Assembly: GCA_947625735.1 (NCBI GenBank)
Contig: CANQPL010000006.1
Span: 38,844 to 102,843, forward strand
From: an uncultured Clostridia bacterium
GTDB lineage: Bacteria; Bacillota; Clostridia; Oscillospirales; Ruminococcaceae
DNA length: 64,000 bases
Reading direction: 5' to 3'
This document shows, one piece after another, positions 1,288-7,161 of this stretch. Within the stretch, counting starts at the first letter, position 1. Each line of letters starts with the position of its first letter. Under the pieces are notes generated by a model that was given only the letters and a program-made list of their open reading frames with translations, was not told where the DNA came from and did not search any database. Position numbers and translations under genes: made by a program.

Positions 1288-1312
1288 GCGTGTCGGAATT
1301 ATACCGACACGC
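1288..1312. terminator. Hairpin terminator between the convergent nfo and toxin operons
   Basis: GCGTGTCGG-AATTATA-CCGACACGC followed by TGTATTTTTT on + strand. Confidence 0.6.
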
Positions 1313-1323
1313 TGTATTTTTCA

Positions 1324-1851
1324 TCACTTTAAAATGATTGAAAGGTATCTTCCGTTAAAATACTCACCCAGTCCATCTGAGCCGGTTGGTGTGTATTTGG
1401 CTACCGTATTCACATTGGGTAAAACGAGATTATGAGAAGACAAAATTTCAATTGTTCTTTCAATAGGCGGCATTGTGTCAGGCGCACCGCTTTCAACTGT
1501 TGTATATGCGTAAGCCATAGCAATGTCATAAATGCTTTTCATCAATACATTCAAATCACGGTCGGTTGCATTAAGAATACTTGTAAATAAATCATACTCT
1601 TCTTTCTTTAGATACTCAAAATTGGATTCCTCGTAGCTTTTGAACTCAAACAAGCATTCCGGTACAATTTCAATATATCTGTAAGAGCTTTCATCAAGGT
1701 AATTGCTGCCGTCAATAATACTCCACATTACCTCTGCAACAGGAGAAAAATCAACATTGGGATAAACAGTAACCGCATATTTTTCAAAACACATAATCGC
1801 ATAGGCAACTCTGCCTAACACAGATACATTTTTAAGTCTTTCTATTGACAT
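1324..1851 (-). CDS. Putative immunity protein, paralog 2 (helical, Imm6-like by context)
   Basis: 175 aa, clear paralog of 1864-2394 (GRxAYxIxCFE, MWS, YRYxEIVPECLFE, YDIAMxYAY); RBS AAGGAG; AT-rich; last gene after the toxin. Confidence 0.65.
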   Translation of the reverse strand: MSIERLKNVSVLGRVAYAIMCFEKYAVTVYPNVDFSPVAEVMWSIIDGSNYLDESSYRYIEIVPECLFEFKSYEESNFEYLKKEEYDLFTSILNATDRDLNVLMKSIYDIAMAYAYTTVESGAPDTMPPIERTIEILSSHNLVLPNVNTVAKYTPTGSDGLGEYFNGRYLSIILK

Positions 1852-1863
1852 GAGAGCATCTCC

Positions 1864-2394
1864 TTAATATAAAAGCATATTTGAAATGCTTTTCGGATCA
1901 AGGCAATGCCCCCAACCTTCTGATTCAGAAAATCGGCTCATACTAACCTTGCCAATATCGGGTAACGAAATAGCATTGTTATTTAGAATTGCAATTACTT
2001 TATCCAAGTATTCATAGGTATCTTTGCCATGGTCGGTGATGTTGGTATAAGCATACTCCATGGCAATGTCATATACACTCATCATGATTGCATTTAGATC
2101 AGGATCATCGCTGTTAAGTATCTTTGTGAACCTGTTGTACTCATCTTCTGTTAGTTTGTCAAAAACATCTGCGGAATAGTGATCCTTTTCAAACAGACAT
2201 TCTGGCACAATTTCAAGATACCTGTATGCACTGTTATCAATGTAATCAGATGAATCAACTACCGACCACATCATCTTGAGAACAGGCTGCATATCAATAT
2301 CAGGATATTTCACCTTGACATAATTCTCAAAGCAGAGGATAACATAGGCAATGCGACCTCTGATTGATAAATCAACAAAATTATTACTGTTCAT
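1864..2394 (-). CDS. Putative cognate immunity protein, paralog 1
   Basis: 176 aa, starts 2 nt after toxin stop with RBS inside toxin 3' end; small, acidic, AT-rich, as typical of toxin-adjacent immunity genes. Confidence 0.7.
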   Translation of the reverse strand: MNSNNFVDLSIRGRIAYVILCFENYVKVKYPDIDMQPVLKMMWSVVDSSDYIDNSAYRYLEIVPECLFEKDHYSADVFDKLTEDEYNRFTKILNSDDPDLNAIMMSVYDIAMEYAYTNITDHGKDTYEYLDKVIAILNNNAISLPDIGKVSMSRFSESEGWGHCLDPKSISNMLLY

Positions 2395-2396
2395 AA

Positions 2397-2891
2397 TTAC
2401 TCTCCTTTATGCCAGCCGGTATTGTTCTTCTTTATTTTTCCTTTGTAAGTCATCGTACAGTTTTTGCAAGAGACTTTTGTATTTCCGAAGCCTTTTTCAG
2501 AAGTGTAAATTGTGTAAATATGCAAATTATGAAGTTTAGCACCACCATGTAATGCACGGTTAACTGCATCGGATTCTGAACAATTCCATGGAGTAGGATA
2601 ATCATTTTGAGAAGATGAAGGCAATAGCTTTTTTAAGTCAGGGTGAATTTCATCTCCGAACTTATCTATACCGCCGTTTCTTCCAAAATATAGATCACCA
2701 GTTTCTTCATCAAATGCCACTGTAGCAGTATTAAACTTCTTGCGCTGCGTGGTAGATTTAGGATCAAGAACGGAGAGGACACTGTTTGTCCAATAAATTA
2801 ACTTGGCTCTTTGATTTTCAGGCTTAATACCCTGTGCAATTTTCTCTCCTCTGGTGCCTGAAAACTGATGACTGTTTGTTTTACTCATCAC
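2397..2891 (-). CDS. YwqJ-like Zn-dependent nucleic-acid deaminase toxin domain with short N-terminal leader
   Basis: AFDEETGDLYFGRN...IHPDLKKLLP...WNCSESDAVNRALHGGA...SCKNC gives CxE plus CxxC deaminase ligands; ATG overlaps DUF4417 TGA (ATGA). Confidence 0.75.
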   Translation of the reverse strand: MMSKTNSHQFSGTRGEKIAQGIKPENQRAKLIYWTNSVLSVLDPKSTTQRKKFNTATVAFDEETGDLYFGRNGGIDKFGDEIHPDLKKLLPSSSQNDYPTPWNCSESDAVNRALHGGAKLHNLHIYTIYTSEKGFGNTKVSCKNCTMTYKGKIKKNNTGWHKGE

Positions 2892-3601
2892 TTCGCCCTC
2901 CCTGCAAAAAACCTGCTTGTTCTGCCGGGATAGGCAAGAATAGTTATGCCCTGTTCTTCAAGCTCCTTAAAACACTTGTAATTAGCCGAGCCGTAAACAA
3001 TGATCGTATGAGGGTGCAGCCGCCTTACTAACTCTTTCAACCCTTCTTCAAAGCGTTCACGGTCTGCAAGCTTACGTGGACTTCCACCAACAGTACCGAT
3101 AGCGACAACACTATTTTCGGGTATGCCGTCAAAACAATAGGAATATGTTTCCGGAGTACCCCAACGGACGTTGTTGATAACAGCATGACCACAGAGCGTA
3201 CCGAACCAATAGCCGAAAGCTCTCATACGGTACACATTCCACAACTTCAGCGGAAAGGGAAAATCCTGATAAAGTGAAAAGTCAGGCGTGATAATGCCGG
3301 CAAAGTGACTCAGTATCTTGTAAGCGTGACCGGAGCGAAACCATATCCCCTTAAAAGAGTCAAAATCACCGTCATCTTCATAGAAACAAACGTAGGCAGG
3401 GCTTATAAAGTCCCTGTTATGCTTTCGCATCTCCTTGCGGTACAGCTCTCCTGCTTCCTTGTAGGTGAGGATATGTACAGGCACTCCGGTTGCAGTGGTC
3501 GGACAGAACGGAATATCGTTTGCCGAAAATTCTGCACCTGATACCATGTACGGTCTCCACCATACGTCCTTGATACCTTTGCGGATAATATTCAGTTTCA
3601 T
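2888..3601 (-). CDS. DUF4417 domain protein
   Basis: Motifs CFYEDDxDFD, ITPDFSLYxDFP, NVYRMR, NNVRWG, DGIP..VVAIGTVG match DUF4417 as I recall the family; SD AGGAGGT at 3613-3619. Confidence 0.75.
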   Translation of the reverse strand: MKLNIIRKGIKDVWWRPYMVSGAEFSANDIPFCPTTATGVPVHILTYKEAGELYRKEMRKHNRDFISPAYVCFYEDDGDFDSFKGIWFRSGHAYKILSHFAGIITPDFSLYQDFPFPLKLWNVYRMRAFGYWFGTLCGHAVINNVRWGTPETYSYCFDGIPENSVVAIGTVGGSPRKLADRERFEEGLKELVRRLHPHTIIVYGSANYKCFKELEEQGITILAYPGRTSRFFAGRAK

Positions 3602-3608
3602 TAAGATA

Positions 3609-3720
3609 CAATACCTCCTGAAAACATCGTCAGGGCATAAAATCCCTGTGGTTTTAGATGTTTCCGAAGTATTGCAGATCTGAATTGTCGAGGTTCCGAT
3701 GGCAATACCCGGAAAACATC
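3609..3720 (-). promoter_or_regulatory. Predicted translational switch in DUF4417 leader (anti-SD / anti-anti-SD)
   Basis: Segment 3675-3657 can pair with 3720-3702 (18/19 pairs incl. G-U) or with 3628-3609, which contains the SD (18 bp, 2-nt bulge). Confidence 0.65.
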
Positions 3721-3895
3721 AGCGAACTGCGCTATCGTTATTAACGATAGCAAAAAGTCAATAAACAGGAAAACTTTTCGTGTAAAATGCAGAGGTGATC
3801 AAACTGTGCAAATCGCCAAAAATGCACCCCGCCTATTGACATTTTTTTCGTAATATGCTACACTGAGATTGTCGAGGTTCCGGTAGCAATACCCG
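3684..3895 (+). repeat. 28-bp imperfect direct repeat (3684-3711 and 3868-3895)
   Basis: ATTGTCGAGGTTCCGATGGCAATACCCG vs ATTGTCGAGGTTCCGGTAGCAATACCCG, 26/28 identical. Confidence 0.95.
3836..3864 (+). promoter_or_regulatory. SigmaA promoter of putative sRNA
   Basis: TTGACA(3836-41)-17 bp-TACACT(3859-64) with extended -10 TG. Confidence 0.75.
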
Positions 3896-3938
3896 AACGG
3901 GCTGTGTTGGTCGCCTGAGCGGTCAGCACAGCTTTTTT
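3871..3938 (+). ncRNA. Putative ~70-nt antisense sRNA
   Basis: Lies between the promoter and a 14-bp terminator hairpin (3901-3932) plus T6; internal GGTA-GCAA-TACC GNRA hairpin; no ORF. Confidence 0.65.
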
Positions 3939-3952
3939 ATTTTCTACTTTCT

Positions 3953-3981
3953 ATTATACAATATAGCAAGAAAAATTGCAA
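3953..3981 (-). promoter_or_regulatory. SigmaA promoter of DUF4417-toxin operon (convergent with the sRNA promoter)
   Basis: TTGCAA(3981-76)-17 bp-TATAAT(3958-53) on minus strand. Confidence 0.65.
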
Positions 3982-4246
3982 TAGATAGTTTGGAAAAATT
4001 TTATATTTGACATTATTTCAGTGATTTTATCTTTAAATGTATTGAGCTTTTTTCGGGATATAATATATGATAAAATTGGAGGTGCAGAGCATGAATATAA
4101 TTTCTGCTGTAGAAAATACGGAGTCAATATTTCAGTTCAACAGTAGTCTTGCAGAGGACTTTTTTCAATAAGTAAAGCAAAGCGGAGCGAAAGCTGTCAT
4201 GAAAACAATGCTCCGGAATTTTTTTTGAAAATATTTTCAAAACCCC

Positions 4247-4275
4247 TTGACAAATACCCCGTGGGGGTATATAAT
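4247..4275 (+). promoter_or_regulatory. csoR-copA promoter with CsoR operator
   Basis: TTGACA-17-TATAAT; ATACCCC-GTG-GGGGTAT palindrome (4254-4270) in the spacer is the typical CsoR C/G-tract box. Confidence 0.85.
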
Positions 4276-4306
4276 ATATACAGAAGTTATGAAAGAGGCT
4301 GATAGT

Positions 4307-4615
4307 ATGGAAAAAGATAACAAGTGCGAGTGCTGTCATAAAACCAAACAGCGCGGGGAAGATGAGTATAAAGGGCTTATCAATCGTCTGAGCCGCATCG
4401 AGGGGCAGATAAGAGGTATAAAAAGCATGGTGGAAAACGATGCATATTGTACCGATATACTTACTCAGTCAGCGGCGGTGACGGCGGCGATGAATGCATT
4501 TAACAGAGAGCTTTTGTCAAACCATATACGCACCTGTGTTTCAGACGGCATAAGGAACGGCGATGATGAGGTGATAGAGGAGCTTCTTGATACGCTAAGA
4601 AAGCTGATGAAATAA
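4307..4615 (+). CDS. csoR: Copper-sensing repressor CsoR/RcnR family
   Basis: [28 protein letters not shown]...HIRTCV; start placed at ATG 4307 after RBS GAGG. Confidence 0.9.
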
Positions 4616-4632
4616 TATACGGGAGGATAGCT

Positions 4633-7161
4633 ATGGACAGATATGATGTTACGGGCATGAGCTGCGCTGCTTGTGTGGCAAGAGTGGAAAAAGCAGTCAA
4701 GGCTGTAAGCGGAGTGACCTCCTGCTCGGTAAATCTTCTTACAAATTCAATGATAGTGGAGGGTACAGCTCCGGTTTCCGCCATAACCTCCGCAGTGGAA
4801 AAGGCAGGATACGGCGCAAAACGCAGGGGAGATAAGGCAGCAGGTGAGGGGGGCGATCCTCTTGCAGACAAGGAAACACCTCTGCTTAAAAAGCGGGTAA
4901 TATGGTCACTGGTATTTCTGGCGGTGCTGATGTACATTTCTATGGGTCATATGATGTGGGGCTGGAGACTGCCCGCCTTTTTTGAGGGAAATCATGTTGC
5001 AGTGGGTCTTTTGCAGCTTCTGCTGACCCTTGCCATTATGGAGATAAATCGTAAATTCTTCATCAACGGTTTTAAAAGCCTGTGGAACCGTTCTCCGAAT
5101 ATGGATACACTTGTAGCTATGGGAGCGTCTGCCGCATTCGGTTACAGTCTTTACGCTCTTTTTGCCATGACAGGCGCACAGGCAAGAGGAGATGCCCAAG
5201 CGGTAATGGGATATATGCACGAATTTTATTTTGAATCGGCAGGCACGATACTTTCACTTATCACTGTTGGAAAAATGCTTGAAGCCCGCTCCAAAGGCAA
5301 GACTACCGATGCTCTGAAAAGCCTTGTAAGTCTTGCCCCGAAAACTGCAAATGTTATAAGAAACGGTAATGAGATCACCATTGCCGCAGAGGAGCTTGAA
5401 AAGGGAGATATTTTTGCAGTACGCCCCGGTGAGAGTATTCCCGCAGACGGAAGAGTGATCGAGGGAAGCAGTGCTGTAAACGAATCTGCGCTTACGGGAG
5501 AAAGTATTCCCGTTGACAAGGAGATAGGCGACAGGGTAAGCGCAGCCACCATAAATCAGTCGGGCTTTTTAAAGTGCGAGGCTGTCAGAGTGGGGGAGGA
5601 TACCGCTCTTTCCGAAATAATCCGTATGGTAAGTGATGCGGCAGCCACCAAAGCACCTATTGCAAAGACTGCCGACAAGGTAGCGGGAGTGTTCGTTCCC
5701 GCCGTGATCGGCATTGCGGCAGTTACGACCGCAGTCTGGCTCATAGTCGGACAGACTGTGGGATTTGCACTGGCAAGGGGCATATCCGTTCTTGTGATAA
5801 GCTGTCCCTGCGCTCTGGGACTTGCTACGCCTGTTGCAATTATGGTAGGCAGCGGCATGGGCGCTAAAAACGGCATACTCTTTAAGACTGCTTCCGCTCT
5901 TGAATCCGCAGGAAAGACTGAAATTGCCGTTCTGGATAAAACAGGCACTATTACAAGCGGCACTCCCGAAGCTGTAGACATAATTCCCGCAGAGGGCGTA
6001 ACGGAGAGTGAACTGTTAAAAGCTGCCTGCTCACTGGAGAAAAGAAGCGAGCATCCTCTTGCGGGAGCGGTCACAAGGCTGGGAGAAGCAAGTGGCGTGA
6101 AAATTTCCGATGCCGAAAATTTTTTGGCTCACCCGGGAAACGGACTTTCCGCAATGATAGACGGCAGAGAAATAACAGGCGGCAGCATGAAATTTATCGG
6201 CAGCAGGATAGATATTCCAAAAGATATTATTACAGCGGCGGATAAGCTGTCTGCCGAAGGAAAAACTCCTCTGCTTTTCTGTGAAAACGGAAAGCTGCTC
6301 GGCATGATAAGCGCCGCAGATCAGATAAGAGAGGACAGTGCAGAAGCTATAGGACAGCTTAAAAAAATGGGTATCCGCACTGTTATGCTCACAGGTGATA
6401 ATGAACGCACCGCCGCTGCCGTGGGCAGGCAGGCAGGCGTGGACGAGATAGTTGCAGGTGTTCTTCCCGACGGAAAGGAAAGCGTTATAAGGCGTCTTAA
6501 AAATGAGGGCAGGGTTGCCATGATAGGTGACGGTATAAACGATGCTCCCGCTCTTACCGCAGCCGATATCGGTATTGCCATAGGCGCAGGTACAGATGTA
6601 GCAATTGATGCCGCAGATGTGGTCCTGATGAAAAGCCGTCTTTCTGATGTACCCGCAGCTGTCAGACTCAGCCGCAGAGTGCTGCGCAATATCAAAGAGA
6701 ATCTTTTCTGGGCGTTTATTTATAATGTAATAGGTATCCCCCTTGCGGCAGGAGTATGGATACCCCTGTTCGGCTGGCAATTAAATCCCATGTTCGGGGC
6801 TGCTGCTATGAGCCTTTCCAGCTTCTGTGTGGTGACAAATGCTCTGCGGCTCAATCTTATTGACGTTCACGATTCTCGGAGGGATCATGCCCTGAAAAAG
6901 CATACATCCTCTGAGAGTGTGAAAATAAATCATGAAAAGGAGAAAAAGACCATGACAAAAACTATGAAGATCGAAGGTATGATGTGCGGACACTGTGAGG
7001 CGACTGTTAAAAAAGCTCTTGAAGCAGTAACGGGCGTGTCCTCCGCCGAGGTAAGCCATGAAAAGGGTACGGCTGTAGTAACTCTTGCTTCTGATGTGGA
7101 AAACAGCGTTCTTACAAAGGCTGTTGAGGATAAGGAATATAAAGTCCTCGGTATTGAATAA
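4633..7161 (+). CDS. copA: Cu(I)-translocating P1B-type ATPase with N- and C-terminal HMA domains
   Basis: [31 protein letters not shown], MxxSS, C-terminal GMMCGHC. Confidence 0.95.

Follow-up and report, generated by a model that had tools for sequence, protein, structure and literature searches.

In an uncultured Clostridia bacterium of the Ruminococcaceae, the 5′ leader region of an operon headed by a DUF4417 gene also holds, in the opposite orientation, a gene for a small RNA (sRNA) of ~70 nucleotides (nt) whose 5′ end is complementary to the leader of that operon. The locus lies in a 64,000-nt stretch of contig CANQPL010000006.1 (positions 38,844 to 102,843), the whole of which is called the window here. 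The complementarity co-evolves at homologous loci, the leader has alternative pairings that free or bury the Shine-Dalgarno (SD) sequence, and operon-strand promoters lie beyond the sRNA gene in the window and at related loci. It is very likely that a real, conserved antisense regulator is encoded here, and we favour, with moderate confidence, the reading that it is a dedicated antisense riboregulator keeping the DUF4417 operon untranslated. The sRNA matches no described RNA family. The principle, by which an antisense RNA leads to sequestration of the SD, is already known from type I toxin-antitoxin and phage immunity systems.

The sRNA gene is on the + strand of the window and has the following parts:

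3836 to 3864, + strand: sRNA promoter, TTGACA-17-TACACT, with a TG upstream of the −10 element
3868 to 3940, + strand: sRNA of ~70 nt, starting at ~3868–3871 and consisting of a variable seed tail, hairpin 1, a terminator and a U run
3868 to 3880, + strand: 5′ seed tail of the sRNA, single-stranded and varying between loci
3877 to 3898, + strand: hairpin 1 of the sRNA, 9 base pairs (bp) with a GCAA loop
3899 to 3934, + strand: terminator of the sRNA, 16 bp, followed by the U run

A sequence-only reading of this DNA had proposed a + strand promoter, an RNA of ~70 nt, a GCAA hairpin and a strong terminator, and each of these is present where it was predicted. The −35 (CTATTGACA) and −10 (TGCTACA) blocks of the promoter are conserved in an alignment with the homologous loci L011, L015 and L028. 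The predicted fold of the sRNA has an energy of −31.7 kcal/mol (z = −3.9) that was equalled by none of 200 shuffles, and the window sRNA scores 74.8 bits under the covariance model R2. In an alignment of ten homologues the two-stem fold covaries, with compensatory changes at 14 of the 23 pairs; 90.4% of the cells in the stems are paired compared with 30–48% in slid controls, and none of 500 shuffles was as good. A comparison with Rfam 15, including C4 (RF01695) and sRNA-Xcc1 (RF02221), covered six sRNA-bearing loci in all and gave no relevant match to the sRNA or the leader at E up to 10 in positions 3000–4700 of the window or at E up to 0.5 at five homologous loci.

The upper stem and loop of the terminator (TGATTGC-N-CCAACAATCA) are conserved across both sRNA subfamilies (alignment A4, columns 45–66), which is unusual for the sequence of an intrinsic terminator. 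This conserved loop, the other strand of which reads ...ALIVGAI..., prompted us to consider a peptide gene opposite the sRNA, and the candidate was rejected since no start codon with an SD was found in the window or in L028. A riboswitch or attenuator for a + strand gene was also rejected because the genes 3′ of the sRNA terminator differ between loci, with csoR-copA in the window and converging ImmA/helix-turn-helix (HTH) genes or others elsewhere.

The first ~28 nt of the sRNA are complementary to the minus-strand leader because positions 3684–3711 and 3868–3895 form a 28-nt direct repeat, identical at 26 of 28 positions on the same strand. The two differences produce one G-U and one A-C in the sRNA:leader duplex, bearing out the earlier claim of a complementarity interrupted by one G-U and one mismatch. 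A search allowing up to 3 mismatches finds just these two copies of the repeat in the genome. Among ~50 other DUF4417 upstream regions, those lacking this sRNA have best direct-repeat scores of 6–13, compared with 22 in the window; far higher scores at L080 and L076 come from unrelated long repeats.

The same layout of an sRNA and a leader repeat, with a repeat copy of 28–31 nt, was found at eight independent DUF4417 loci, namely the window, L011, L028 (the same as L030 and L032), L015 (the same as L031), C34 (L063), L061, L050 and L118, so that the conservation and covariation of repeats and seed that the sequence-only reading had named as its test are indeed seen. The loci were found via relatives of the DUF4417 protein, a metagenome pattern scan and covariance models built from the sRNAs. 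L061 and L050 come from other families of the same order and have a GAGA loop in the sRNA hairpin, and L118 is a locus on an IMG/VR viral contig. The seeds vary between loci, L011 and L028 having one in common, and every leader holds the complement of its own seed:

window: GUCGAGGUUC
L015: GUGGGGGUUC
C34: GCGACAGUUC
L118: GUCUAAGUUC
L061: ACCAUAUUAC
L050: GUCCUAUCAC

The intermolecular count and the matrix of duplex energies cover seven of the eight loci, L118 having been found later and left out. Both sides changed at 19 of the 31 sRNA:leader pairs, and 92.9% of cells are paired compared with 30–44% in slid controls (0 of 500 shuffles as good). Comparative support for a conserved sRNA whose 5′ end pairs with the leader is thus strong. 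Cognate duplexes have energies of −45 to −51 kcal/mol and most non-cognate ones −15 to −42 kcal/mol, the sole off-diagonal exception being L011 with L028 (~−51 kcal/mol), which are closely related and share a seed. The flanks of the repeat diverge freely while the repeat itself stays at 26–28 of 28 within each locus, and the differences between the copies of one locus are mostly G-U compatible (9 of 11 transitions, by our hand count).

Other sources of the repeat and other homologues were also considered. Duplication as attL/attR was rejected, the repeats being 184 nt apart with no gene in between. DNA of positions 1300–3960 gave no match in phage and plasmid databases, 300 genomes from this family, searched with the DNA, returned chance matches only, and a search for the terminator-loop pattern in viral contigs gave 13 matches with no real homologue among them. 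Low-scoring matches of a first covariance model, R1, were false positives from tRNA T-arms and terminators.

In the leader, the site that the sRNA would bind is embedded in a set of elements that can pair in two ways:

3702 to 3720, − strand: arm A (anti-anti-SD), a near-copy of the SD region that pairs with A′
3657 to 3675, − strand: arm A′ (anti-SD), which pairs with A or with A″
3608 to 3628, − strand: A″, the SD region, with AGGAGGU at 3619–3613 and the DUF4417 start codon at 3601
3631 to 3648, − strand: inner hairpin between A′ and A″
3684 to 3711, − strand: proximal sRNA target site, covering the 3′ part of arm A and the A:A′ loop, with a duplex energy of −50.1 kcal/mol

These alternative pairings, the burial of the SD and the inner hairpin had all been proposed from the sequence alone and were found as placed there. 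The A:A′ inverted repeat is 79% Watson-Crick, or 18 of 19 pairs when G-U is counted, and five loci retain the helix, six of its pairs showing compensatory changes. In the minimum free energy (MFE) fold of the leader, A′ pairs instead with 3608–3628 and buries AGGAGGU. The pairing of A′ with the SD window has an energy of −18.1 kcal/mol in the window (z = −3.7; 0 of 300 shuffles as good); across the window, L011, L015 and C34, z lies between −3.1 and −4.6. The corresponding pairing in L118 joins CCUUCUCGG with CCGAGGAGG, and this locus shows the switch most plainly, its A′ (CCUUCUCGGAGAUGC) pairing either with A (GCAUCUCCGA) or with the SD (CCGAGGAGG). A counterpart of the inner hairpin is present at the same position in L011, L028 and C34. 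When the sRNA site was blocked in silico, the probability that the SD is unpaired, P(SD unpaired), fell from 0.79 to 0.20 in L028 and from 0.48 to 0.15 in L061, and blocking never raised SD accessibility in seven proximal leaders, nor at the proximal site of long leaders, which fits repression.

According to the mechanism that we favour, a constitutive-looking promoter would drive an RNA of ~70 nt in which a free 5′ tail precedes a hairpin and a terminator, and the first 28–31 nt of this RNA would pair with the A:A′ loop and the 3′ part of arm A in the leader. As long as A:A′ stands, the ribosome-binding site would be free. Binding of the sRNA to A, or cutting of the long duplex by RNase III, would release A′ to pair with A″, and once A′:A″ has formed DUF4417 and the genes coupled to it would stay untranslated. 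What we infer from these features is that the two RNAs are transcribed, that the sRNA represses when bound and that its effect comes about by cleavage or refolding. The specific mechanism of anti-SD release appears fairly probable.

Further upstream on the operon strand, the leader region holds a second set of features that overlaps the sRNA gene itself:

3953 to 3981, − strand: distal promoter of the operon strand, TTGCAA-17-TATAAT, just beyond the sRNA terminator
3847 to 3897, − strand: distal X:X′ hairpin, an RNAalifold helix (columns 64–115) with compensatory changes
3897 to 3883, − strand: X, the complement of sRNA hairpin 1
3861 to 3847, − strand: X′, the complement of the −10 element and spacer of the sRNA promoter
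3731 to 3751, − strand: hairpin P (GCTATCGTTAATAACGATAGC), just upstream of A, covarying as an RNA helix at five loci

Distal promoters occur at the same position in L011, L015 and L028 (perfect TTGACA-17/18-TATAAT with an extended TG) and in C34 (TTTACA-17-TATAAT). The distal promoter probably starts the operon messenger RNA (mRNA), which would then have a leader of ~350 nt antisense to the whole sRNA gene. With an mRNA from this promoter the sRNA would therefore also be a full cis-antisense RNA with two targets, since the first ~75 nt of the leader would be its perfect complement as well. On the operon strand RNAalifold recovers three conserved helices, namely X:X′, hairpin P and A:A′, and the covariation of X:X′ makes sense only if an operon-strand RNA crosses the sRNA promoter. 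A long-range pairing of GUCAAUAG with CUAUUGAC is also present in the MFE folds of long leaders, and in long-leader folds a conserved CTATTGAC box pairs with the complement of the sRNA −35 element. As a promoter this box was rejected, no usable −10 element being found at any locus.

The A-loop-A′ segment aligns with X-loop-X′ far past the 28-nt repeat (Smith-Waterman score 62 vs 22 ± 4 for shuffles), and the model R2 weakly matches positions 3683–3781 on the + strand (18 bits) as a degenerate sRNA copy, the terminator stem of which falls at the position of hairpin P. Because of this alignment and this weak match, we take the proximal site to be a diverged tandem duplicate of the distal module, the ancestral cis-antisense one. 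The leader as drawn by the sequence-only reading was thus right about the proximal target but incomplete, since the distal promoter and the duplicate nature of the proximal site had been missed.

A simpler arrangement was seen at the compact loci L067, L068, L009, L012, L016, L070 and L080, where the sRNA is divergent with its 5′ end ~90–125 nt from the DUF4417 start; at a further compact locus, L095, the sRNA was found by genome search (49.7 bits) with ~55 nt from its −35 element to the start codon. The L012 sRNA was recognised by eye, without a model match. Compact loci have no repeat in the leader, and inside their operons no trans targets stood out above reversed-sequence and antisense controls. 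Instead, the complement of the sRNA −35 element contains an anti-SD that covaries with the SD, a further point in favour of a leader that runs across the sRNA gene:

L067: anti-SD GUCCCUUU with SD AAAGGGAC
L016: anti-SD CUCCUUUGU with SD ACAAAGGAG
L012: anti-SD CUUUCGUC with SD GACGAAAG

One stretch of DNA at these loci is thus both a promoter element (−35) and an anti-SD of the mRNA. Blocking the complement of the sRNA lowered P(SD unpaired) from 0.22 to 0.02 in L067, from 0.21 to 0.00 in L068, from 0.51 to 0.00 in L095 and from 0.57 to 0.32 in L070. To judge from these pairings, the compact loci appear to follow the same three-part logic with a cis-encoded sRNA and to represent its ancestral form.

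Several results weigh against the favoured mechanism. In the compact loci L009 and L016, P(SD unpaired) rises slightly on blocking (0.00 to 0.12 and 0.05 to 0.20, respectively). The window leader is closed at equilibrium, with an MFE of −40.6 kcal/mol compared with −32.8 kcal/mol for the best SD-open fold and a P(SD unpaired) of 0.23 free and 0.20 bound; the values for its long leader are 0.21 and, with the sRNA site blocked, 0.20. The leaders of C34, L015 and L118 are likewise closed with or without the sRNA, and the A′:SD pairing is no better than shuffles in the two GAGA-loop loci (z = −1.4). Gene conversion between direct repeats can mimic covariation between the sRNA and its target, although the freely diverging flanks and the mostly G-U-compatible differences speak against it. 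No good sigma-70 promoter was found between the sRNA gene and arm A, so that an inactive distal promoter would leave the mRNA with no recognised start. As for transcripts, a search for RNA runs containing the window found none, the matches being DNA runs from a rabbit gut metagenome. The L028 stretch, from a close relative, is present in rumen metatranscriptome contigs from several independent studies, and contigs of runs X8 and X9 (two studies) run unbroken from the DUF4417 coding sequence through the leader and the sRNA gene, to position 4534 of L028. This continuity favours the long leader, but the contigs are unstranded, could include DNA carry-over and speak for presence only.

The sequence-only reading had held that sRNA binding closes the SD and that loss of the sRNA turns the operon on. 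The first claim stands in part, in that blocking the site lowers or keeps SD accessibility, although in the window the leader is already closed when free. The second does not follow thermodynamically from the near-equal probabilities in the window, and it is doubtful, by these models, that losing the sRNA alone would open the window leader. Since the fold that closes the SD is already the one at equilibrium when no sRNA is present, a switch in the window would have to be kinetic or work through cleavage: the sRNA would act on A:A′ formed co-transcriptionally, or by way of cleavage of the ~28-bp duplex.

The closed leader also bears on another explanation, in which the sRNA is a classical cis-antisense RNA on the distal leader that acts by RNase III cleavage, mRNA decay or interference between converging promoters, and in which the proximal A/A′/A″ set is an autonomous, default-closed lock that needs no flip by the sRNA. 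This fits a proximal leader that is closed at equilibrium without the sRNA, a distal promoter right beyond the sRNA terminator, full complementarity to the sRNA over ~70 nt, and compact relatives that have the cis arrangement only. However, the proximal copy keeps 26–31 nt of pairing with the sRNA at eight diverged loci and changes in step with it, which would be hard to account for were it no target, and in the compact loci the three-part logic ties the cis target to the anti-SD. We consider this explanation unlikely.

That the proximal repeat is a neutral relic of the tandem duplication, with no regulatory role, would account for the alignment of the two modules well past 28 nt and for the weak match of the sRNA model to the proximal module as a degenerate copy. 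A relic should decay, yet the repeat is still there at loci with DUF4417 proteins of only ~35% identity and stays at 26–28 of 28 per locus while its flanks diverge. Moreover, most differences between the copies, including 9 of 11 transitions, are compatible with G-U pairing, and A′ has gained complementarity to the SD, all of which makes a relic very improbable. Similarly slim are the chances that a sequence-specific protein binds the 28-nt copies as DNA sites (operators or iterons), their RNA complementarity being a by-product. Direct repeats do flank divergent or convergent promoters, and HTH and ImmA/IrrE regulators are encoded upstream elsewhere, but the seeds differ completely by locus and in the window the copies are not accompanied by the likely regulators; furthermore, one copy sits inside a promoter-hairpin-terminator unit with stems that covary as RNA, the other sits in the loop of a covarying RNA hairpin, and the differences between copies respect G-U pairing. 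Finally, several leaders are closed at equilibrium and could need some activating input, but it is hardly to be expected that the sRNA activates by opening a closed leader, given that it pairs with A and the loop rather than with A′ or A″ and that blocking the proximal site never raised SD accessibility (the slight rises in L009 and L016 concern compact loci).

The antisense riboregulator proposed here would act on an operon of several genes:

2888 to 3601, − strand: DUF4417 gene, first in the operon, 237 amino acids (aa), PF14386 (E = 6.8e-39)
1324 to 2891, − strand: downstream genes, encoding a 164-aa deaminase-like protein and then two paralogous ~175-aa proteins

There is a 4-nt overlap between the 164-aa gene (2397–2891, − strand) and the DUF4417 stop. 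PF14431 and PF00383 domains are found in homologues of the 164-aa protein, and the window protein itself is below the Pfam cut-off. The second and third genes of the operon differ between loci. The second genes (2891–2397 in the window, and those of L011, L015, L028, C34 and L061) share a Gly/Ser-rich N-terminus with MSKGYSGxFSGTKGS and MGAGIHGGFGTGTKG, and their C-termini are unrelated between loci (deaminase-like, DUF6883 or unknown); the partner or third genes vary, one example being a pentapeptide-repeat protein. A conserved N-terminus followed by unrelated C-termini resembles the pattern of polymorphic toxins, and the label of toxin-immunity operon is plausible.

The same genome has a second, paralogous module on contig C34, with an sRNA at 2181–2255 (+ strand), a leader at ~2010–1900 (− strand) and a DUF4417 paralogue at 1899–1216 (− strand). 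It has a different seed (CUUGCGACAGUUC) and different downstream genes (172 aa and 154 aa), and because cross-pairing between the window and C34 modules reaches just ~−25 kcal/mol, the two should be orthogonal. The genome has four DUF4417 genes (C6, C34, C22 and C26), two of which have an sRNA.

At other loci, ImmA/IrrE peptidases are encoded upstream, one of which carries a fused HTH domain. In L011, L015 and L028 an inverted repeat, ATATAGTA ... TACTATAT, brackets the −35 element of the distal promoter, ~50–100 nt upstream of the sRNA terminator complement; the neighbouring HTH/ImmA-type regulator probably uses this repeat as its operator. On the operon strand, immediately before the sRNA terminator complement, a very strong SD (GAAAGGAGTGAT-like) with a tiny open reading frame (ORF) of 5–17 codons is present in L015 (~1700–1740), L068, L070, L118 (2180–2225), L009, L012, L028 and C34 and is absent in the window. 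This ORF ends inside the terminator complement in some loci and reads MIV... in four, and in many cases its SD shares bases with the stop codon of the ImmA/IrrE gene before it; the ORF may encode a leader peptide or serve to load ribosomes.

In L029 (1–1445) an sRNA homologue scoring 53 bits is located directly upstream of, and divergent from, a tyrosine integrase gene, with the same X:X′ hairpin and an SD of AAGGAGTGAT. The integrase is followed by a fragment of the 3′ end of transfer-messenger RNA (tmRNA) that is att-like; this att-like fragment sits in the tmRNA 3′ end, outside the sRNA. The riboregulator may thus serve genes other than DUF4417 too. Because of the ImmA/IrrE neighbours and the L029 integrase, we assign the cassette to the regulatory regions of mobile elements.

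Two further observations concern the + strand of the window beyond the sRNA gene. Between it and csoR is a 26-codon ORF at 4091–4171 (MNIISAVENTESIFQFNSSLAEDFFQ); this ORF has GGAGGTG as a strong SD, and a site at 4042–4071 resembles a promoter. A perfect consensus promoter (12/12) at 4247–4275, upstream of csoR (4247–4615) and a copper P-type ATPase gene (4633–7161), contains the palindrome ATACCCCGTGGGGGTAT (4254–4270), which we take to be an ordinary CsoR operator.

In logic, type I toxin-antitoxin systems and phage immunity RNAs appear closest to the proposed regulator. As in type I systems, an antisense sRNA is predicted to base-pair with its target mRNA, here over 28–31 nt that covary at eight loci. 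Type I toxins are small (usually <60 aa) and hydrophobic, whereas the first cistron here encodes the 237-aa DUF4417 protein and the candidate toxin has 164 aa. With a regulated product that is no small peptide, it is not a canonical type I toxin-antitoxin system. The comparison agrees with the earlier suggestion of a logic analogous to that of type I antitoxin RNAs but directed at a multi-gene target.

In the par/Fst system, direct repeats in oppositely transcribed DNA likewise give sRNA-mRNA complementarity away from the SD, the structure of the mRNA limits translation and a dedicated sRNA is encoded beside its target. Unlike here, the par toxin is a ~33-aa peptide and the two RNAs converge on a shared terminator; the present case has a multi-gene operon, an sRNA oriented against the 5′ leader region that contains it and a three-part arrangement of anti-anti-SD, anti-SD and SD. 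The tisB/IstR-1, zorO/OrzO and dinQ/AgrB systems share a divergent sRNA with ~18–30 nt of complementarity to the toxin 5′ untranslated region and primary transcripts that 5′ structure keeps translationally inert, but they have small peptide toxins and short, imperfect seeds, are found in gamma-proteobacteria and are not known to have either cis-antisense overlap or a duplicated target. The c4 RNA of phages P1 and P7 and the CI RNA of P4 (Rfam C4, RF01695) are also sRNAs of mobile elements with repeated leader sites that silence downstream genes, and the context is comparable here, with ImmA/IrrE neighbours, the viral contig of L118 and the position of L029 beside an integrase. These RNAs, however, are processed from the transcript of their own target and act on access to the ribosome-binding site or on termination, while the sRNA described here has its own promoter on the opposite strand. 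The par locus of pAD1 (Fst mRNA RNA I, antitoxin RNA II) is classed as a type I toxin-antitoxin system (review PMC7472228), and the three E. coli systems have been reviewed as well (PMC4147584). In bsrG/SR4 of Bacillus subtilis, antisense binding at a distance from the SD is reported to bring about a refolding that tightens SD sequestration, much as proposed here, and SR4 also promotes decay of bsrG mRNA (PMC3834814). Differences are that the toxin is a small membrane peptide and that the overlap of SR4 with the toxin mRNA is at its 3′ end (PMC3834814), whereas the site here is in the 5′ leader and duplicated.

More tentatively, the sRNA and leader together could be a portable riboregulator cassette, with a swappable seed of ~12 nt on a constant hairpin-terminator scaffold, placed before DUF4417/polymorphic-toxin operons and, in L029, a tyrosine integrase, and converted from cis to trans action by duplication of the target. 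Since the scaffold is constant and seed and target co-diverge, several orthogonal copies per genome, as with the two here, would be possible. If confirmed, this would be an undescribed RNA family in gut and rumen Clostridia that controls a widespread, uncharacterised cassette of DUF4417, a variable toxin-like gene and variable partners, often downstream of ImmA/IrrE regulators. It would provide a natural set of orthogonal sRNA/leader pairs, with eight seeds so far, and would make visible how duplication can turn cis-antisense into trans-acting control in evolution. Removal or mutation of the sRNA would also give a direct handle on the function of DUF4417 operons.

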